Shown piece after piece: positions 10,013 to 19,280 of a DNA stretch of 64,000 nucleotides (its first letter is position 1; each line of letters begins with the position of its first letter). The position numbers and the translations under genes were made by a program. Below the pieces are notes generated by a model. That model ran no database searches and was not told the DNA's origin. It was given only the letters and a program-made list of their open reading frames with translations. Source of the stretch: an uncultured Gammaproteobacteria bacterium (lineage in GTDB: Bacteria > Patescibacteriota > Patescibacteriia > S139-126); assembly GCA_964620905.1 (NCBI GenBank), contig CAZUKA010000001.1:158524-222523 (forward strand). Reading direction: 5' to 3'.

Positions 10013-12775
10013 ATGAAATTATTACAAAAAATATTTGGCGATCCAAATGAAAAATATCTAAAAACTTTGTTACCGAAAGTTAAACAAATTAATGACCTTG
10101 AACAAGATATAAAAAACTTAACTGACGGAGAATTACGCCATAAAACAAACGAATTTAAACAGCGTCTACAAGCAGGAGAGAAAATCGACAATCTCTTGGT
10201 TGAGGCATTTGCAGTAGTGAGAGAAGCGTCTCGTCGTACCACGGGTATGCGTCATTTTGATGTCCAATTGCTTGGAGGAATGGTTTTACACAGTGGGCAA
10301 ATTGCTGAAATGAAAACCGGAGAAGGAAAAACATTGGTGGCAACTTTGCCTCTTTACTTAAATGCTTTAACTAATCAAGGAGTTCATCTAGTTACAGTTA
10401 ATGATTATCTGGCCAGACGTGATACAGTATGGATGGGTCAAATTTATCATTTTCTTGGGTTGACTGTTAGTTGTATTCAACACCAAGGTGTGTCTTATCT
10501 CTATGATCCTACCCACAAAAATATCGACGATCAAGCAGTAGTGGTTGATATGGATAATCTTCGACCCATCACTCGCGCTGAAGCGTATCGTACTGACATA
10601 ACCTATGGTACCAACAATGAATTTGGTTTTGATTATTTACGTGATAATATGGCCATTGAAACCTTACAGATTGTACAACGGCCATTGTCTTATGCTATTG
10701 TCGATGAAATCGATTCGATTTTGATTGATGAAGCTAGAACTCCATTAATTATTTCTGCCCCAGCCGAAGAATCAGGAAGTCAATATCAACAATTTTCTCA
10801 AATTGCTACTCAATTGGTGGAAAACCAAGATTATAATGTTGATGAAAAAATGCGTGCAGTTACTTTGACCGAATCGGGTATCGCGCGGGTAGAAAAAATG
10901 TTGCAAGTAGAAAATATTTATACGGATAAACAATTGGACTTGGTTTATCATATTGAAAATGCTCTTAAAGCCAAAGCACTATTTAACCGCGATCGTGATT
11001 ATATCGTTAAAGAAGGCGAAGTAATTATTGTTGACGAATTTACTGGTCGCTTAATGCCGGGTAGGCGATATTCAGAAGGATTACATCAGGCTATAGAAGC
11101 AAAAGAAGGTGTAAAAGTTCAACAAGAATCTCAAACTCTAGCCTCAATAACTTTCCAAAATTATTTTCGAATGTATGAAAAACTTTCTGGTATGACTGGT
11201 ACTGCTTTTACTGAAGCAGAGGAATTTTATAAAATTTATGCTTTGGAAGTAACAGTAATACCCACCAATAAACAAATAATTAGAAAAGATTTAGAAGATT
11301 CAATTTATAAAACAGAAGAAGGAAAATTTCATGCCCTTATTAAAGAAGTAAAAAAAAGGGTAGAACTTGGTCAACCGGTTCTAATTGGTACGGTTTCTGT
11401 TGAAAAAAATGAACTTTTACATCAATTGCTTGAACGAGCCGGAGTAAAGCATGAAATATTAAATGCTAAAAATCATGCCAGAGAAGCAGAAATTATTGCT
11501 CAAGCCGGACGTCCGGGTGCAGTTACCGTGGCTACCAATATGGCTGGTCGTGGGGTTGATATAATTTTAGGAGGTCAACCTTTTGACCAAAAATTACATG
11601 AGCAAGTTAAAAAGTCGGGTGGACTTCATGTTGTTGGAACAGAAAGACACGAATCCCGGCGTATTGATAATCAGTTACGCGGACGAAGCGGTCGCCAGGG
11701 TGATCCAGGTAGCACCCAGTTTTACATATCTATGGAAGATGATTTGATGCGTATTTTTGGTTCCGACCGGATGAAAGCGATAATGAATACGCTACGAGTC
11801 CCAGCAGACATGCCAATTGAGAATCGTTTAATAAGTAAATCTATTGAAACAGCACAAAAGAAAATTGAAGGTCATAATTTTGATATCCGTAAACATTTAG
11901 TAGAATATGATGATGTTATCAATAAGCATCGCGAAGCTATATATCGCAAACGTCGAGAAATATTATCGTCAGCTGAAGCTGATATAAAAAACAATGTTTC
12001 AGACCAAGATTCTGCTTTGCGTAAATTGATTTTACAAGCTCTTCAAGATGAAATAGAACAGGTTGTTTCTTTTCATACCACCGGCGAGAGAAGTAACGAA
12101 TGGAACACTAAAGAAATTTATGAAACAATCACTACTATTTATCCTGCGGAAAAAGAATTATTGTCAGAGTTGAAAAATTTATTTGAAAAAAGTTTAGATG
12201 GTGCTGCTCAAGCTGGGTATCGTACAGATTTGATTGAAAAAATTTTTCAAGATTTACTCAAAAAGTATGAGCAGTTATCAGATAAAATATTATCAGGACC
12301 CCTGGGAGAAAATAAACAAGTCATGCGCCAGATAGAAAAAGCTGTTTATCTTCGAGCCATTGACATTCATTGGATATCACATATTGATACTTTAGACCGA
12401 ATTAGACAGGGGATTGGACTTCGTGGTTATGGTCAAAGAGATCCTTTGGTAGAGTATAAAAAAGAAGCTTATCGGTTATTCAATGAATTATTACAAGCTA
12501 TTCAAAACCAAGTAGTTTATTCTATTTTTAAAGTTGCCCAGGCTCAGGAAGTTTCTTTGCGTTCGCCCTTACAACGGCGGGGGCTAATTATGTCAGCTCC
12601 TGCTAAAACTATGGATAAAAACCAAAATGCCAAGAATGATTTACCTAATAGTAGTAATTCTCAATTAGCTTCAGTAGAAAATGAATATGCCCGAGTTGCT
12701 GGTAAAAAAGTAGGACGCAACGATCTTTGCCCTTGTGGTTCAGGTAAAAAGTATAAACGCTGTCACGGGGCGTGA
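10013..12775 (+). CDS. secA: Preprotein translocase ATPase SecA
   Basis: 920 aa. SecA DEAD-like motor motifs are present and the C-terminal zinc finger CPCGSGKKYKRCHG is diagnostic. The gene ends with TGA. Confidence 0.95.
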   Translation: MKLLQKIFGDPNEKYLKTLLPKVKQINDLEQDIKNLTDGELRHKTNEFKQRLQAGEKIDNLLVEAFAVVREASRRTTGMRHFDVQLLGGMVLHSGQIAEMKTGEGKTLVATLPLYLNALTNQGVHLVTVNDYLARRDTVWMGQIYHFLGLTVSCIQHQGVSYLYDPTHKNIDDQAVVVDMDNLRPITRAEAYRTDITYGTNNEFGFDYLRDNMAIETLQIVQRPLSYAIVDEIDSILIDEARTPLIISAPAEESGSQYQQFSQIATQLVENQDYNVDEKMRAVTLTESGIARVEKMLQVENIYTDKQLDLVYHIENALKAKALFNRDRDYIVKEGEVIIVDEFTGRLMPGRRYSEGLHQAIEAKEGVKVQQESQTLASITFQNYFRMYEKLSGMTGTAFTEAEEFYKIYALEVTVIPTNKQIIRKDLEDSIYKTEEGKFHALIKEVKKRVELGQPVLIGTVSVEKNELLHQLLERAGVKHEILNAKNHAREAEIIAQAGRPGAVTVATNMAGRGVDIILGGQPFDQKLHEQVKKSGGLHVVGTERHESRRIDNQLRGRSGRQGDPGSTQFYISMEDDLMRIFGSDRMKAIMNTLRVPADMPIENRLISKSIETAQKKIEGHNFDIRKHLVEYDDVINKHREAIYRKRREILSSAEADIKNNVSDQDSALRKLILQALQDEIEQVVSFHTTGERSNEWNTKEIYETITTIYPAEKELLSELKNLFEKSLDGAAQAGYRTDLIEKIFQDLLKKYEQLSDKILSGPLGENKQVMRQIEKAVYLRAIDIHWISHIDTLDRIRQGIGLRGYGQRDPLVEYKKEAYRLFNELLQAIQNQVVYSIFKVAQAQEVSLRSPLQRRGLIMSAPAKTMDKNQNAKNDLPNSSNSQLASVENEYARVAGKKVGRNDLCPCGSGKKYKRCHGA

Positions 12776-12969: not shown

Positions 12970-13182
12970 ATGCAAATTAAGCAAGGTAGATACCAACATT
13001 ATAAAGGTGGTTATTATGAAGTCATTGGCGTGGCTAAACACAGTGAGACCAAAGCTGATTTAGTAGTTTATCAAAGTTTATCTGACAAAAAACTTTGGGT
13101 AAGGCCTAAAGAAATGTTTTTACAAGAAATAAAAATAGACAATCAAACGGTACCACGATTTAAATTGTTATTAGAAAAATGA
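12970..13182 (+). CDS. DUF1653-like small protein
   Basis: 70 aa. YQHYKGGYYEVIGVAKHSET...LVVYQSL matches the DUF1653 pattern (YRHYKGG.Y). The stop overlaps the start of the next gene. Confidence 0.45.
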   Translation: MQIKQGRYQHYKGGYYEVIGVAKHSETKADLVVYQSLSDKKLWVRPKEMFLQEIKIDNQTVPRFKLLLEK

Positions 13183-13928
13183 AAAAAATACTAATTATTT
13201 TATTTATTTTATTTTTTATATATCCAAATCTAGTTACCGCCCAAAGTAACCAGCAACTTGATAGTGATAACGATGGTTTATCTGATAGTGAAGAATTAAA
13301 TATATATTTTACTGATCCAATAAATCCTGACACTGATAATGATGGTTTTTCAGATGGAGAAGAGTTAAAAAAACATTTTTCTCCTCACGCACCAGAAAAA
13401 ACATTATCACAGCATGATCTTGATAAAGACGGACTATCTGACTGGTTGGAATTACAATTTAACACCAGTTTGAATAATCCAGACACAGATGGTGATGGTT
13501 TTAGTGATTATGAAGAAATATTGAATAGTTTTGATCCACTTGTTTCCACAGCCAATAAGTTACCCCAAACTATTATTATTGATACCAGCTCGCAAACACT
13601 TTCAGTTTTACTAAAAAATATCCCATTGTCAGTTTTTCCAGTATCAACTGGAAGAAAAGGTTATGAAACACCAAAAGGTGAATACAAAATAAACAATAAA
13701 ATACCTCGAGCTTGGTCTAAAACTTACGGTTTATGGATGCCTTATTGGATGAGTTTTATTGGTTCACAATATGGCATTCACGAACTGCCGGAATGGCCGG
13801 GTGGATTAAAGGAAGGTCAAAATCATTTAGGTGTTCCTGTATCCCATGGTTGTGTAAGACTAGGTATTGGTCCAGCTAAGTGGCTCTATAATTGGGCTAA
13901 TATTGGCACAAAAGTAATCGTACAATAA
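13179..13928 (+). CDS. Secreted L,D-transpeptidase (YkuD family) with N-terminal calcium-binding TSP3-like repeats
   Basis: Signal peptide. Four DxDxDG(L/F)SDxEE repeats of thrombospondin type-3 / OmpA-like calcium-binding type. C-terminal YkuD domain with the catalytic motif SHGCVRL. Confidence 0.7.
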   Translation: MKKILIILFILFFIYPNLVTAQSNQQLDSDNDGLSDSEELNIYFTDPINPDTDNDGFSDGEELKKHFSPHAPEKTLSQHDLDKDGLSDWLELQFNTSLNNPDTDGDGFSDYEEILNSFDPLVSTANKLPQTIIIDTSSQTLSVLLKNIPLSVFPVSTGRKGYETPKGEYKINNKIPRAWSKTYGLWMPYWMSFIGSQYGIHELPEWPGGLKEGQNHLGVPVSHGCVRLGIGPAKWLYNWANIGTKVIVQ

Positions 13929-14009: not shown

Positions 14010-15710
14010 ATGACTCAAAAAAATTATCAAATAAGTAAGGTTGATAGTCGTCAAAAATTGTGGTTTAAAGCAGCCGTGATTGTTTTTATTTTTGTTTTTT
14101 TTGGAGCGATCGTTTATCCGGTAATGCCCAACTGGTTTCCAGGAAAAAATTGGTTTGATTCTTTTCAACCAAAATTAGGACTTGATTTACAAGGAGGTGC
14201 TCATTTAGTCTTTGAAACCGATATTTCACAAATTGAGATTGATAATCGATCGTCAGCTGTTGAAGGTGTTAGAGATGTAATTGAAAGAAGGGTAAATACT
14301 TTCGGTATAGCTGAACCATTAGTTCAAACAAATAAACAGGGTGATAAATATAGAGTGATTGTTGAATTGGCGGGGGTATTTGATATTGATGATGCAATAA
14401 AACAAATCGGGGAGACTCCATTATTGGAATTTAAAGAACAGAATCCTTCTTTCACCTCTGAAATTTCCTTAAATGCTGAGCAGCAACAGTCATTAGAAAA
14501 CTATAACAACGAGGCAAAAAATAAAGCTAAAGAGATAATCATTAAATTGAATCAAGGGGGAGATTTTATTACTTTAGCTAAAGAATTTTCCGAAGATCCT
14601 GGTAGTAAAGAAAACGGTGGAAACCTTGGTTATGTAAAAAGGAATGTTTTTGTCCCAGAATTTGAAGAGGCAATATTTAATCAATTAAAAAACAATGAAA
14701 TTACATCTGAACCAATAGAATCACAGTTTGGTTATCATATTATTCAGAAATTAAATGATCGTGGATTTGGTGAGGAACGAGAAGTCGAATCACGTCACAT
14801 TTTAATTGCCAAAATGACGCCGCAAGATTTAATTCCAATTGATAATCAATGGATCAATACCGAACTATCTGGAAAACATTTACAAAAAGCTCAATTGGTC
14901 TTCAATCAAAATACTAATGCCCCAGAAGTATCCTTGCGTTTTAATGATGAAGGCAAGAAATTATTTTCAGAAATTACCAAGAAAAATTTATATAAACCAG
15001 TAGCAATATTTTTAGATGGTCAATCTATCTCCATTCCGACCGTTCAATCTGAAATTACTGAGGGCGAAGCAGTAATCAGTGGTGATTTCACAATTTCTGA
15101 AGCTAAACTTTTAGCCCAAAGATTAAATGCTGGTGCGCTGCCAGTACCGATTACTTTGGTTAGTCAACAAACAATTGGACCAACTTTAGGCGTCAAGAGC
15201 ATCAATCAAAGTATTTTTGCCGGCATAATTGGTGTATTAGCTTTGGCTCTGTTTATGCTACTTTATTACCGTTTACTCGGTTTATTTGCTATTCTTTCGT
15301 TGGCGGTCTATGGTATTGTTGTTTTTGGTTTATTTCAATTTATTCCGGTGACTTTAACTTTAGCAGGTATCGCAGGTTTTATTTTATCTTTAGGAATGGC
15401 TGTTGATGCTAATGTTTTGATATTTGAAAGGGTCAAAGAAGAACTTAGACACGGTCAACCTCTAGATATAGCCATGTTAACTGGCTTCAAGCGCGCTTGG
15501 CCAGCAATTCGTGATTCAAATATTTCTACCTTAATCACAACCGGAATTCTTTTTTGGTTTGGAACTTCGGTTATTAAAGGTTTTGCTTTGACTTTAAGTA
15601 TAGGTGTATTAGTAAGTATGTTTAGTGCTATTTTTGTCACGCGAACACTATTAAATTTATTTGTGGTAAAAAAATTGGAGAGGTTTAAATGGCTGTTTGG
15701 TTTTAAATAA
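14010..15710 (+). CDS. secD: Protein-export membrane protein SecD carrying an inserted parvulin-type PPIase domain
   Basis: 566 aa. SecD start LGLDLQGGAHLVFE, P1-head segments and the C-terminal 6-TM bundle are present. Residues approx. 165-250 (GGDFITLAKEFSEDPGS...GGNLGYV...VPEFEEAIF...SQFGYHIIQ) are an unmistakable PpiC/parvulin rotamase signature. Confidence 0.85.
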   Translation: MTQKNYQISKVDSRQKLWFKAAVIVFIFVFFGAIVYPVMPNWFPGKNWFDSFQPKLGLDLQGGAHLVFETDISQIEIDNRSSAVEGVRDVIERRVNTFGIAEPLVQTNKQGDKYRVIVELAGVFDIDDAIKQIGETPLLEFKEQNPSFTSEISLNAEQQQSLENYNNEAKNKAKEIIIKLNQGGDFITLAKEFSEDPGSKENGGNLGYVKRNVFVPEFEEAIFNQLKNNEITSEPIESQFGYHIIQKLNDRGFGEEREVESRHILIAKMTPQDLIPIDNQWINTELSGKHLQKAQLVFNQNTNAPEVSLRFNDEGKKLFSEITKKNLYKPVAIFLDGQSISIPTVQSEITEGEAVISGDFTISEAKLLAQRLNAGALPVPITLVSQQTIGPTLGVKSINQSIFAGIIGVLALALFMLLYYRLLGLFAILSLAVYGIVVFGLFQFIPVTLTLAGIAGFILSLGMAVDANVLIFERVKEELRHGQPLDIAMLTGFKRAWPAIRDSNISTLITTGILFWFGTSVIKGFALTLSIGVLVSMFSAIFVTRTLLNLFVVKKLERFKWLFGFK

Positions 15711-16623
15711 TATGCATTTTCCCTTTATTAAAAAACGTAAATATTGGTATATTTTTTCCGGTTTATTGATAGCCATGTCTGTCGGGGCATTGTCTGTCTG
15801 GGGACTAAAACCCGGAATTGATTTTACTGGTGGCTCACTCTTAGAAGTTCAATTTACCGGTGAACCCCCAACCAACAGTCAGCTTAATGATGTAATTGGT
15901 GATTTAAATATTGGTAATGTAAGTGTTCAGCCATCAGAAGAAAATATTTTTATTTTACGTTTAAGAGATTTGTCTGAAAACGAACACCAATTATTAATTG
16001 ATTCTCTTAATAATTTTTATCAAACTGAGTTTTCAGGCGAAGTTATTGAACAACGTTTTGAGTCAATTGGTCCCACCATTGGCGTAGAATTAAAGAATAA
16101 GGCAGTAATGGTCACAATTTTGACTTTAATATTTATCATTTTGTTTATTGCTTATGCTTTTCGAAAAGTTTCATATCCGATGGCTTCTTGGAAATATGGC
16201 CTGGCTGCTTTGATCGCTTTATTTCATGATATAATAGTTTTACTCGGTGCATTTGCTTTTTTGGGAAAATTTTTTAACTATGAGATCAACGTCTTGTTTC
16301 TAACTGCTTTGCTCACTACTTTAGGTTATTCAATTAACGATACCATTGTGGTTTTTGATCGTATCAGGGAAAATATATTTAAACAACATGTAGATTTTTC
16401 CACGACTGTTGAAGAATCTATGAATCAAACTTTTGCCCGATCTATTAATACTTCCTTTACGACTCTACTGGTATTATTTGCAGTTTATTTTTTTGGTGGC
16501 GATAGCATTAGACAATTTATTTTGGCTTTACTAATTGGTATTGGAATAGGTACATATTCTTCTATTTTTGTAGCCTCACCTTTAATGGTAGACTGGTTCC
16601 TTATTTCTAATCGAAAAAAATAA
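15697..16623 (+). CDS. secF: Protein-export membrane protein SecF
   Basis: 308 aa. SecF N-terminus FTGGSLLEVQF and the 6-TM SecD/SecF C-terminal domain. Translationally coupled to secD. Confidence 0.85.
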   Translation: MVLNNMHFPFIKKRKYWYIFSGLLIAMSVGALSVWGLKPGIDFTGGSLLEVQFTGEPPTNSQLNDVIGDLNIGNVSVQPSEENIFILRLRDLSENEHQLLIDSLNNFYQTEFSGEVIEQRFESIGPTIGVELKNKAVMVTILTLIFIILFIAYAFRKVSYPMASWKYGLAALIALFHDIIVLLGAFAFLGKFFNYEINVLFLTALLTTLGYSINDTIVVFDRIRENIFKQHVDFSTTVEESMNQTFARSINTSFTTLLVLFAVYFFGGDSIRQFILALLIGIGIGTYSSIFVASPLMVDWFLISNRKK

Positions 16624-17168: not shown

Positions 17169-19280
17169 ATGAACATTCTTGAAAATAACTCGGAAGAATT
17201 TGAGATTAGAAAGAAAAAAATTTTAGCTTTAAAAAAAGCTGGTTTTAATCCTTATCCTGAAAGATTCAGTAAAGAGCATGATATTCGACAACTGTTTGAT
17301 TATGCTAATGAAAACGAAATTTTTGATGTCAAAGAAATAGATAGAAGTGATCAAATTTTTACCACTGCTGGCCGTTTAATGACCTTACGATCTCATGGCA
17401 AAATTACATTTGCTCACTTGCAAGATCATACTGGTAAAGTCCAGCTAGCTTTTTCTCTTAATATTTTATCGGCTGAAAAATATTGTGTTGTTGATTTATT
17501 TGATTTGGGCGATTGGTTGGGTGTTTCTGGTAAAATTTTCCGTACTCATAAAGGAGAAGTGACCTTGATGGTTTTTTCTTTTATTTTTTTAGGTAAAGCT
17601 TTTCGTCAATTGCCTGAGAAATTTCATGGGTTAAAAGATAAGGAAACACTTTATCGACAACGTTATTTGGATTTGATTGTCAATATAGAAACAAGGGACA
17701 GATTCCAAGCTAGATCAAAAATTGTTGATTTTTTACGTCGTTATTTACAGCAGAATAAGTTTGAAGAAGTAGAAACACCTATTTTATCACCTACGGCTTC
17801 CGGGGCAATTGCTAAACCTTTTATTACTCATCACAATGCCTTAGCAGCAGATTTTTATTTACGGATAGCTCCCGAAACGTATTTAAAACGCCTTATTGTT
17901 GGTGGGTATGAGCGAGTATTTGAATTTGCTAAATGTTTTCGAAATGAAGGTATTGACCCTTCCCATTTACAAGAGTTTACCATGTTGGAATATTATGCTG
18001 CTTATTGGAATTGGGAAGATAATATGGTTTTTACAGAAAAAATGATTAGCCAATTGGTCTTATCATTATTTGGCAAATTGAAAGTTAATTTATTTGGACA
18101 AACAATAGATTTTACTCCTCCTTGGCCGATTTTATCATTACGAGAGGCAATTTTAAAAAACACTAAAATAGATATTAATAAATTTAAAACAGCATCTGAA
18201 TTGCGAGTGGCAATTCATCAAGCAAAAATTTCTTTGGAAGAATCTGAAAATTTAGGCATTGGAAATTTGATTGATTTGCTCTATAAAAAAGTTGCAAGAG
18301 AAAAAATAATTCAACCGACTTTTTTAGTGAAACATCCAATTAGTCTATCGCCACTAGCTAGGGCCAATGATGACGATAAAAGAATTGCTGATCGTTTTCA
18401 ATTGTTGGTAAATGGTTGGGAAATTATTAATGCTTATTCTGAACTTGTTGATCCTTTTGAACAAAGGGAAAGATTAATTACGCAAAATAAACTTAAAGAA
18501 GGTGGTGATGAAGAAGCTATGATGATGGATGAAGACTATATTAAAGCAATGGAATATGGTCTGCCTCCGATATCGGGGTGGGGGATGGGAATTGATCGCC
18601 TTTGTACTTTATTTTTTGAACAAGAAAATTTAAAAGATAGTATTTTATTTCCCTTATTGAAAAGTAAAGATCAAATAGAAAAAAAAATTTATGACTCCGA
18701 GATATTGATTTCTGATCCCGGTATAACTTTTGAACAAGCACTAAAAATATTGAACGAATATATTCCTTCGACTGATCCTTTATATAAACATTCCTTAGCG
18801 GTAGAGGCAATTATGCGTTCTTTTGCACGTCATTTTAAACAAAATGAAACAGTTTGGGCAATTGCTGGGTTGTTGCATGATCTTGATTATTTAGAAACCA
18901 AAAACAATTTACGTCTTCACGGTCTTAAAACAGAAGAAATTTTAATTAAACATGGTTTACATCCGGAAATAATTTATGCGATCAAAGCCCACAATTATTT
19001 ACACGAACTTTCCTTATCTACTTTATTGGCAAAAACTTTGTATTCAGTTGAGGAATTATCTGGTTTAATTATTGCTTGTGCTTTGGTTACACCCGAAAAG
19101 TCATTATTGGCGGTTGATTTGGATTTTTTAAAGAAAAAATTTAAACAAAAATCTTTTGCTGCTGGTGTCAATCGATCAATAATTGCTAAGGCTGAAGAAT
19201 ATTTAAATATGAATTTGGATGAGATTATGTCTCTGGCACTCGCTACTTTACAACAAAAAAAAGATTTATTTGATCTTTAA
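17169..19280 (+). CDS. lysS: Lysyl-tRNA synthetase (class II) fused to a C-terminal YqeK-like HD-domain hydrolase
   Basis: 703 aa. Residues 1 to approx. 510 are a complete class II LysRS (OB anticodon domain, motifs 1-3, GLPPISGWGMGIDRL). Residues approx. 515-703 carry H..H, LLHDLDY and IKAHNY motifs that align with the HD-domain Ap4A hydrolase YqeK (H...HD, IRYHT). Confidence 0.85.
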   Translation: MNILENNSEEFEIRKKKILALKKAGFNPYPERFSKEHDIRQLFDYANENEIFDVKEIDRSDQIFTTAGRLMTLRSHGKITFAHLQDHTGKVQLAFSLNILSAEKYCVVDLFDLGDWLGVSGKIFRTHKGEVTLMVFSFIFLGKAFRQLPEKFHGLKDKETLYRQRYLDLIVNIETRDRFQARSKIVDFLRRYLQQNKFEEVETPILSPTASGAIAKPFITHHNALAADFYLRIAPETYLKRLIVGGYERVFEFAKCFRNEGIDPSHLQEFTMLEYYAAYWNWEDNMVFTEKMISQLVLSLFGKLKVNLFGQTIDFTPPWPILSLREAILKNTKIDINKFKTASELRVAIHQAKISLEESENLGIGNLIDLLYKKVAREKIIQPTFLVKHPISLSPLARANDDDKRIADRFQLLVNGWEIINAYSELVDPFEQRERLITQNKLKEGGDEEAMMMDEDYIKAMEYGLPPISGWGMGIDRLCTLFFEQENLKDSILFPLLKSKDQIEKKIYDSEILISDPGITFEQALKILNEYIPSTDPLYKHSLAVEAIMRSFARHFKQNETVWAIAGLLHDLDYLETKNNLRLHGLKTEEILIKHGLHPEIIYAIKAHNYLHELSLSTLLAKTLYSVEELSGLIIACALVTPEKSLLAVDLDFLKKKFKQKSFAAGVNRSIIAKAEEYLNMNLDEIMSLALATLQQKKDLFDL

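Follow-up and report, generated by a model that had tools for sequence, protein, structure and literature searches.

Why should a subunit of the protein translocase carry a peptidyl-prolyl isomerase (PPIase) domain of the parvulin type within its own polypeptide, and could such a domain be at work there? The question is raised by the secD gene in a 64,000-nucleotide stretch of DNA (here called the window; contig CAZUKA010000001.1 of assembly GCA_964620905.1, positions 158,524 to 222,523 of the forward strand), which is deposited as an uncultured Gammaproteobacteria bacterium and placed among the Patescibacteriota by GTDB. An earlier note, made from the letters alone, had proposed that a parvulin domain is inserted into the P1 head of this SecD and couples translocation to prolyl isomerisation. 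The analysis presented here points, with a probability of roughly 0.65, to a functional SecD with a permuted parvulin at the connector between P1 base and P1 head, which would serve as a translocon-tethered foldase or chaperone similar to PrsA and PpiD.

SecD architecture and site of the insertion

The overall layout of the gene and of the encoded protein is as follows (window positions, followed by residues of SecD).

14010–15710, forward strand: secD, a single uninterrupted open reading frame (ORF) of 566 amino acids, stop codon included in the coordinates; from the ORF list
14046–14114, forward strand: first transmembrane helix (TM1), residues 13–35; AlphaFold 2 (AF2) helix, SecD topology known from 3aqp
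14175–14444, forward strand: P1 base subdomain, residues 56–145; Pfam Sec_GG (54–71) and SecD_1st (85–145), AF2
14850–15146, forward strand: P1 head subdomain, residues 281–379; Pfam SecDF_P1_head (284–379, E = 4.6e-30), AF2 strands and helices
15153–15659, forward strand: C-terminal transmembrane bundle of the RND (resistance-nodulation-division) type, residues 382–550; Pfam SecD_SecF_C

Outside of the insertion the protein displays the features of a canonical SecD, as the earlier note had maintained. The SecD model TIGR01129 is matched with 386.8 bits (cutoff 244.4) in two stretches that are split by the insert, and the closest sequence in the PDB is SecDF of Thermus thermophilus (3aqp, E = 1.3e-83). 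The full-length AF2 model likewise retrieves the SecDF structures 5xap and 3aqp as the best Foldseek matches (E ~ 1e-25), with 5yhf also listed, and comprises TM1, the base and the head of P1 and the five C-terminal transmembrane helices (AF2 helices 13–35 and 395–563). The P1 base harbors the LGLDLQGG motif, adopts a β-α-β-β-α-β topology with LLEFKE (residues 139–144) as final strand according to the AF2 secondary structure, and shows a mean pairwise identity of 0.75 within the family; such regional identities refer to 84 members with a single parvulin domain, and conservation counts to 87 single-domain sequences. The P1 head begins with the invariant Trp281 and the motif NTxLSGK. Its Pfam model is matched from position 19 onwards, and the alignment with T. 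thermophilus SecDF is resumed at residue 160 of the latter.

In the transmembrane bundle, Asp466 is located within GMAVDANVLIFER, is invariant in the 87 sequences and corresponds to residue 340 of T. thermophilus SecDF in an ungapped alignment (residues 286–550 to 160–424). We take this Asp340 to be the conserved aspartate of transmembrane helix 4 (TM4) that belongs to the proton pathway. Judged from sequence features such as the invariant Asp466, the remainder of SecD looks functional. Together, the TIGR01129 match, the architecture, the TM4 aspartate and a SecF partner, encoded here by a separate adjacent gene, identify the protein as SecD. Everything up to about residue 390 is located outside the cytoplasmic membrane, where it is placed by TM1.

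The peptide GGDFITLAKEFSEDPGSKENGGNLGYVKRNVFVPEFEEAIFNQLKNNEITSEPIESQFGYHIIQKL (residues 183–248 of the ORF) lies in a region that is matched by two parvulin profiles, Rotamase_3 (PF13616; residues 150–249, E = 1.2e-24, 87.5 bits versus a cutoff of 22.5) and Rotamase (PF00639; residues 161–246, E = 6.5e-21, 75.6 bits versus a cutoff of 21.7). With both scores far above the cutoffs, the proposed presence of a parvulin domain in SecD is borne out. The alignment with Thermus SecDF falls into two blocks, residues 43–150 corresponding to 21–124 and the ungapped block from residue 286 onwards, which are separated by 135 residues here and by 35 residues in Thermus SecDF, giving about 100 extra residues. 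Since in-frame SecD segments flank the domain on both sides, it represents a true internal insertion and not a fusion of two genes.

With boundaries taken from the Pfam models and the 3aqp alignment, the insertion point lies between LLEFKE, the strand with which the P1 base and the SecD_1st match end, and Trp281 with the NTxLSGK motif. The insert is thus positioned on the base-head connector, outside the head fold itself. The placement in the P1 head proposed earlier holds insofar as the insert belongs to the extracytoplasmic P1 domain, but it resides at the connector and not in the interior of the head. This connector is the hinge of the P1 head swing, as known from SecDF crystallized in F, I and super-F forms (3aqp, 5xap and 5yhf). 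Similarly, positions 14502–14760 (residues 165–250), to which the domain had been assigned, lie inside the module, but the module is larger and additionally includes a long helix (residues 156–181) on the N-terminal side and a conserved strand (residues 258–267) on the C-terminal side. Its parts are:

14445–14819, forward strand: whole inserted module, residues ~146–270, consisting of a linker, a parvulin that is very probably circularly permuted, and a second linker; Pfam, alignment with T. thermophilus SecDF
14475–14762, forward strand: parvulin core, residues 156–251, with the elements α1-α2-α3-β2-α4-β3-β4 in canonical order
14781–14810, forward strand: strand EVESRHILIA, termed β1′, residues 258–267, carrying His263; AF2 hairpin with β4, sequence alignment

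The core contains the parvulin residues Ser194, Asp196, Leu206, Phe214, Phe218, Ser238 and His243, the latter in the motif FGYHII. No Pfam match to SurA_N, to a trigger-factor-like domain or to the N/C-domain of PrsA was found anywhere in the SecD protein, and the NCBIfam models for PrsA and SurA match the parvulin part only, far under their cutoffs (PrsA, 71.9 bits versus 361). The insert has no export or anchoring signal of its own; it is internal to SecD and anchored by the SecD transmembrane helices. In conclusion, the insert is a parvulin by the measures of profile hidden Markov models (HMMs), fold and catalytic residues, but not by canonical connectivity, and the protein stands outside the PrsA, SurA and PpiD families, though it plausibly works like them.

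Connectivity of the parvulin fold

The core had been described as a textbook parvulin. This description fails at the N-terminus, where strand β1 is missing and is very probably supplied by the strand following β4, which amounts to a circular permutation. Both Pfam profiles are left unmatched at their N-terminus, the matches running from position 19 to 114 of 116 (Rotamase_3) and from 10 to 94 of 97 (Rotamase). Correspondingly, the canonical β1 ('xxSHILV'), which bears the first active-site histidine, is absent in front of the core, and the AF2 model contains no strand in residues 145–155. A β1-like motif, REVESRHILIAK, is positioned after FGYHIIQKL.

The assignment of this motif as the displaced strand is based on seven independent lines of evidence, one of which comes from the double-parvulin SecDs described below. 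HMMER aligns the insert co-linearly with the parvulin-1 core, the linker and strand β1 of parvulin 2 of Escherichia coli SurA, and strand 258–267 by itself aligns to β1 of PrsA and of an archaeal parvulin. Moving the strand to the front of the insert extends the Rotamase match from positions 10–94 (79.5 bits) to 1–94 of 97 (82.5 bits) and raises the Rotamase_3 score from 90.5 to 96.6 bits, now matched from position 15. In an artificial tandem duplicate of the insert, the junction is spanned by the parvulin domain that scores best. Moreover, β1′ forms an island of conservation with a mean pairwise identity of 0.63, located between linkers with values of 0.24–0.34.

The full-length AF2 model, built with an alignment of the 87 sequences, shows the insert with a predicted local distance difference test score (pLDDT) of about 90, rising to about 95 in the core and amounting to about 90–95 in strand 258–267. 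The elements follow each other in the order helix 156–181, helix 186–193, strand 205–209, helix 216–225, two short strands (231–232 and 237–238) and strands 241–251 and 258–267. A model of the insert alone (pLDDT 88.8, predicted template modelling score (pTM) 0.78) displays the same elements, and in both models strand 258–267 is hairpinned straight onto β4 (241–251). In a Foldseek search the core matched the parvulin domain of PrsA (6xd8) with 1.0 Å over 77 columns and 49% identity, and CsPin (2rqs) with 1.5 Å over 80 columns; superpositions on 6xd8, 2rqs and 4g2p gave 1.0–4.2 Å and TMt values of 0.72–0.77. The confident parvulin fold in the AF2 model, with the high pLDDT of the core and the close fit on 6xd8, is what the earlier note had anticipated. 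The limitation of the superposition on the parvulins of PrsA, CsPin and SurA (1.0–1.5 Å) to 77–80 of about 95 parvulin residues is expected of an aligner that depends on sequence order if β1 comes from the other end of the domain.

The parvulin sheet, which is antiparallel, has four strands and is packed by helices, is generally described with the strand order 2-1-4-3. Given this order, a strand hairpinned to β4, as in the models, would fill the β1 slot between β4 and β2. In addition, β2 (residues 205–209) is assigned as a strand by DSSP and thus needs a partner, which β1′ would supply. Taken together, it is very likely that strand 258–267 represents the displaced β1 and that the parvulin is circularly permuted.

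Active site and conservation

Along with the core, the displaced strand provides the residues of the parvulin tetrad Asp-His-His-Thr/Ser, which is conserved at all four positions: Asp196, His243 and Ser/Thr238 are found in 87 of 87 sequences each, and His263 in 83 of 87. The proline pocket is formed by Leu206 (85/87), Phe214 (66/87) and Phe218 (85/87), while Ile264 and Leu265 next to His263 are both invariant (87/87). We take the corresponding residues of Pin1 to be Cys113, His59, His157 and Thr152 for Asp196, His263, His243 and Ser/Thr238, and Leu122, Met130 and Phe134 for the proline pocket.

The mean pairwise identity amounts to 0.58 in the parvulin core, 0.67 in the P1 head and 0.69 in the transmembrane bundle. 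The values for the core and for the post-β4 strand lie well above those of the flanking linkers, indicating that the insert is under purifying selection.

Parvulins of the Pin1 type are characterized by a basic phosphate-binding loop between β1 and α1 and by an active-site cysteine. In the SecD insert the active-site position is occupied by an aspartate (Asp196) and the β1-α1 loop is absent, so that the domain falls outside the Pin1 type. A phosphate loop of this kind is in fact impossible here, because the breakpoint of the permutation falls at its position. The aspartate in combination with the missing phosphate loop indicates a non-phospho-specific site of the PrsA/Par10 type.

Distribution of the fusion

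The same insertion recurs throughout related SecD proteins, as the survey of orthologues proposed in the earlier note revealed. All of the 120 best homologue clusters (55–100% identity; NCBI, JGI, ENA and Logan) pair PF00639/PF13616 with SecD domains, and where the clusters are named, they are termed 'protein translocase subunit SecD' of Komeilibacteria, Parcubacteria or 'Patescibacteria group'. The very protein encoded in the window recurs, without any difference, in an independent Logan assembly as well as in JGI data.

Furthermore, GTDB species genomes were scanned with a query consisting of the end of the P1 base, the insert and the start of the head. Among the matches listed, full-length carriers belong to Komeilibacteria, Buchananbacteria, Falkowbacteria, the Parcubacteria group and unclassified Patescibacteria metagenome-assembled genomes (MAGs), and include two MAGs labelled Gammaproteobacteria; the remaining matches listed are ordinary parvulins in which only the core is aligned. 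The scan represents a sample and not a census. Full-text literature searches brought up neither a fusion of SecD with a parvulin nor a parvulin with circularly permuted strands. Apparently, the fusion is widespread and visible to domain databases, but undescribed.

SecD proteins with two parvulin cores

Eleven divergent SecDs of Patescibacteria contain two parvulin cores (L006, L007, L008, L009, L011, L012, L014, L024, P0098, P0099 and P0118). Where the ORF is complete, these proteins comprise 666–725 amino acids; the ORF of L007 ends at the edge of its contig. One of them is located as follows:

2596–4725 of L014: ORF of the double-parvulin SecD

In the double form, core 1 is followed by a strand of the pattern 'xxSH[ILV]LICY', by core 2 and by a terminal strand. 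The inner unit, formed by the first strand and core 2, matches the Pfam profile from position 1 to 96 of 97 and thus represents a parvulin in canonical order, in which both histidines are kept in 11 of 11 proteins. In the outer unit, the β4 position of core 1 is occupied by Asp, Glu, Asn, Ser or Ala in 10 of 11 proteins, and the corresponding position of the terminal strand by Arg or Ala in 8 of 11. The pairs formed by these two positions (β4/terminal strand) are Asp/Arg, Glu/Arg, Asn/Arg (five times), His/His, Glu/His, Ala/His and Ser/Ala, so that Asp, Glu or Asn is paired with Arg in 7 of 11 cases.

On the basis of these sequences, the simplest reading of the double form would be a nested arrangement, in which a canonical parvulin is inserted into the β4-β1′ hairpin of a permuted outer one. 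The joint loss of the outer histidines in β4 and in the terminal strand supports the pairing of these two strands, and the retention of both inner histidines in all eleven proteins indicates that selection always retains one complete active site.

Two further observations concern the double forms. A Cys...Cys pair after the inner β1 ('H[ILV]LICYxGxxxCE') is conserved in 10 of 11 proteins and could form a disulfide. Moreover, double-parvulin SecDs of the Patescibacteria type (L007, L014 and P0098; loci with 36–46% G+C) are filed under MAGs labelled 'uncultured Gammaproteobacteria' or 'Candidatus Bipolaricaulota', which points either to contigs that were wrongly binned or labelled or to horizontal transfer.

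Origin of the module and comparison with known systems

A search of representatives with the insert only gave 28,207 matches at E ≤ 1e-3, in which SurA-like proteins with several parvulins outrank the fusions, as the scores of repeats add up. In one of them, the SurA-like protein P0149, the stretch reaching from the core of parvulin 1 across the junction to β1 of parvulin 2 is 51% identical to the insert over 107 columns. The SurA-like junction between parvulins 1 and 2, FGFHIIEVLERSGEKVGVRHILI, resembles the junction 'FGYHIIKKxxERGEGxxxEVxSxHILI' of the SecD family. P0149 as well as P0132 and P0189 are SurA-like proteins of about 430 amino acids with two tandem parvulins on a very short linker, which makes them candidate donors of the insert; another protein, P0121, carries four tandem parvulins of the Cys type. 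From these sequence similarities, the module most likely goes back to a SurA-like chaperone with tandem parvulins, out of which the core of parvulin 1 was excised together with β1 of parvulin 2. Such an origin would fit permutation by duplication, with a tandem repeat being trimmed at both ends.

The SurA-like proteins (E. coli SurA, 1m5y; P0132 and P0149; Bacteroides fragilis PPIase, 8hm3 and 8hm4) thus share the closest sequence matches and a co-linear alignment with the insert. In SurA, however, each parvulin possesses its own N-terminal β1, whereas the SecD insert consists of a single core and a single following strand, and this strand must consequently complete the preceding core. In addition, the SecD insert lacks N- and C-terminal chaperone domains. 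Structurally, the insert is matched best by 8hm3/8hm4, with 1.8 Å over 105–110 columns, a length that exceeds that of the parvulin core by itself. These entries represent a Bacteroides PPIase of 427 amino acids that is the target of the toxin BfUbb.

PrsA of Bacillus and other Firmicutes resembles the insert in its core (49% identical to Bacillus anthracis PrsA, 1.0 Å on 6xd8), in the Asp-type, non-Pin1 active site, in its extracytoplasmic location tethered to the membrane of a monoderm-type cell and in its presumed action on Sec substrates. In contrast to PrsA, the SecD insert has no lipoprotein anchor, no NC chaperone domain and no known dimerisation element; its strands are, very probably, permuted, and SecD serves as tether.

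Among the SecDF proteins, those of Thermus and Deinococcus radiodurans (3aqp, 5xap and 5yhf) share TM1, the base and head of P1, the RND-type bundle, the TM4 aspartate and an adjacent SecF with the protein described here, but lack the ~100-residue parvulin insert between the last strand of the base and the first strand of the head. Furthermore, SecD and SecF are encoded by separate genes here. Compared with Thermus SecDF, SecD of the E. coli type is longer by about 155–170 residues in the part that precedes the equivalent of residues 286–287 (NF009545/5mg3_D versus 3aqp), these residues corresponding to 316–329 in E. coli-type SecD and to 160 in Thermus. Judged from such alignments, the P1 region in front of the head may quite generally attract additions that are specific to a lineage.

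Associations between the Sec machinery and parvulins are known from other bacteria. In E. coli, PpiD-YfgM and SurA are physically coupled to the holotranslocon. In Mycoplasma pneumoniae, a dome composed of Mdp436, Mdp444 and Mdp489 together with SecYEG-SecDF-SecA is PrsA-like, and density of a substrate in transit touches the PPIC domain of Mdp444. Both systems resemble the fusion in placing a parvulin/PPIC factor at the outer face of Sec beside SecDF, and M. pneumoniae, in addition, is a genome-reduced bacterium without outer membrane. Here, however, the parvulin is located inside the SecD polypeptide, whereas the factors of M. pneumoniae and E. coli are separate, non-covalently bound proteins.

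Function of the inserted parvulin

The reading favored here, a translocon-tethered foldase or chaperone, would involve the following steps. SecD would act together with the adjacent SecF as an accessory motor of the Sec translocon that is driven by the proton motive force. The strand following β4 would fold back as a hairpin and fill the β1 slot between β4 and β2, which would bring His263 beside His243 and complete the tetrad Asp196-His263-His243-Ser/Thr238. Because P1 occupies the outer mouth of SecYEG, where it is believed to capture the chain during its exit, the most likely role of the tethered parvulin is to act in cis on emerging secretory proteins, for which it could be a prolyl isomerase, a folding chaperone or both. 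The SecD-parvulin would then be a covalent version of the arrangements formed by Sec and PpiD/YfgM, by Sec and SurA, by PrsA, and by Mdp444 and SecDF in Mycoplasma. A PrsA-like coupling of translocation to prolyl isomerisation, as envisaged in the earlier note, is favored by the conservation of the tetrad and, by analogy, by the known associations of Sec with PPIases. The data presented here establish the identity of the domain, its insertion site, its conservation and a confidently predicted fold, and they provide evidence from sequence and evolution for the permutation. What we infer, then, is how exactly β1′ is packed, that the domain is catalytically active, that it acts on substrates of Sec, and any link to movement of the head.

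Several points weigh against this reading. In vivo, SurA, PpiD and PrsA can do without PPIase catalysis, and the histidines of parvulins have been argued to be structural; conservation of the tetrad is, for both reasons, no proof of catalysis. Since a chaperone domain of the SurA or PrsA NC type is missing, the capacity to hold substrates may be limited. For the location of β1′ in the β1 slot and the contact between His243 and His263, the arguments come from secondary structure, sequence and covariation, and the geometry between the domains of the full AF2 model is uncertain (pTM 0.55), so that the model does not fix the position of the active site relative to the SecY exit or the P1 head. Within the 64-kb window, which covers only part of the ~717-kb genome, no second parvulin was found. 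Finally, a survey of the candidate phyla radiation (CPR) finds PrsA annotated in every CPR class. The fusion therefore need not replace a free foldase such as the separate lipoprotein that, according to the earlier note, would otherwise be needed, but these annotations might themselves stem from the domain embedded in SecD.

As an alternative, the inserted parvulin could be a non-catalytic module for substrate binding or holding, which would enlarge the surface of P1 that captures preproteins and reduce their back-sliding, with isomerisation being irrelevant. The dispensability of PPIase activity in SurA, PpiD and PrsA is in line with such a holdase, and so is the outer domain of the double forms, which lost its catalytic histidines and yet was kept, suggesting that a parvulin fold without active site is tolerated or useful; the long and variable helix α1 (0.34 identity) could serve as spacer or binding arm. 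A holdase leaves unaccounted for, on the other hand, that Asp196, His243, His263, Ser/Thr238 and the proline pocket are almost invariant in the single-domain sequences and that one complete site is present in every double variant, as selection on an active site predicts. It is therefore considered unlikely, albeit the strongest of the competing explanations.

Alternatively, the insert might have a structural or regulatory task within the SecDF motor, for instance by biasing the swing of the head between the F and I forms or by docking SecD to the cell wall or another partner in the envelope, and not act on substrates at all. Its position exactly at the base-head connector, the hinge region for movement of the head, would suit this role, and the longer P1 part of E. 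coli-type SecD suggests that P1 tolerates lineage-specific additions. Since a mechanical spacer requires neither a conserved tetrad and proline pocket nor an intact site in all double variants, this explanation is improbable.

An artefact, be it a frameshifted or chimeric assembly of a parvulin gene and secD, as the earlier note had considered, or a decaying pseudogene, can be dismissed at a negligible residual probability, as nothing was found in its favor and the single reading frame, the SecD segments on both sides, the >120 homologue clusters from independent projects, the identical protein from an independent Logan assembly and from JGI, and the purifying selection on the insert all contradict it.

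The tethered foldase or chaperone can also be taken one step further. If the permuted parvulin were catalytically competent and a moving part of SecDF attached at the base-head hinge, each head swing driven by the proton motive force might present the emerging chain to the active site and withdraw it, giving rise to an energy-coupled 'pull-and-fold' device found throughout the superphylum. This extension is speculative and rather doubtful.

Genomic neighbourhood

The genes of the Sec machinery that surround secD are:

10013–12775, forward strand: secA, 1.2 kb upstream of secD; Pfam SecA_DEAD, SecA_PP_bind, SecA_SW and SEC-C
15697–16623, forward strand: secF; TIGR00966, 275.2 bits versus a cutoff of 160

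The start of secF is ambiguous, as the TTG at 15697 overlaps secD by 14 nucleotides, while an ATG at 15712 is located 2 nucleotides past the secD stop; a public gene call (L001) takes the ATG equivalent to 15712 as start. Immediately upstream of secD lies the gene for an L,D-transpeptidase of the YkuD type (13179–13928, forward strand), which contains three Ca-binding repeats of the bacterial thrombospondin type 3; it is preceded by a small DUF1653 ORF (12970–13182, forward strand). The same order is found in the independent contig L001. Downstream of secD and secF follow the genes for GreA and lysyl-tRNA synthetase. The latter (17169–19280, forward strand) encodes 703 amino acids with a C-terminal HD extension (Pfam HD, 539–615), an unusual fusion for this synthetase.

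The base composition is about 31% G+C. The cumulative GC skew reaches its maximum at about 20–22 kb, where the orientation of the genes flips from mostly forward to mostly reverse (convergent), and the skew is strongly negative past 44 kb. Judged from the sequence, the skew peak together with the switch in orientation would fit a region of replication termination located within the window.

Implications for SecDF and parvulins

The permuted connectivity would represent a natural circular permutation of a parvulin that is not described in the literature searched. For annotation, it is relevant that the fusions are named only 'protein translocase subunit SecD', and surveys based on KEGG orthology (KO) or HMMs may register the domain inside SecD as 'PrsA'.

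It is debated how SecDF aids secretion and how translocation passes to extracytoplasmic folding factors. If the 'pull-and-fold' device were real, it would provide Rosetta-stone evidence that the role of SecDF includes the hand-over of substrates to PPIase chaperones. The covalent fusion of a parvulin into the substrate-binding domain of SecD, conserved in many Patescibacteria, is of Rosetta-stone value for the link between SecDF and chaperones and provides separate evidence, from evolution, for a functional partnership between SecDF and parvulins, and it offers a minimal system, consisting of a single polypeptide, in which this partnership can be tested.

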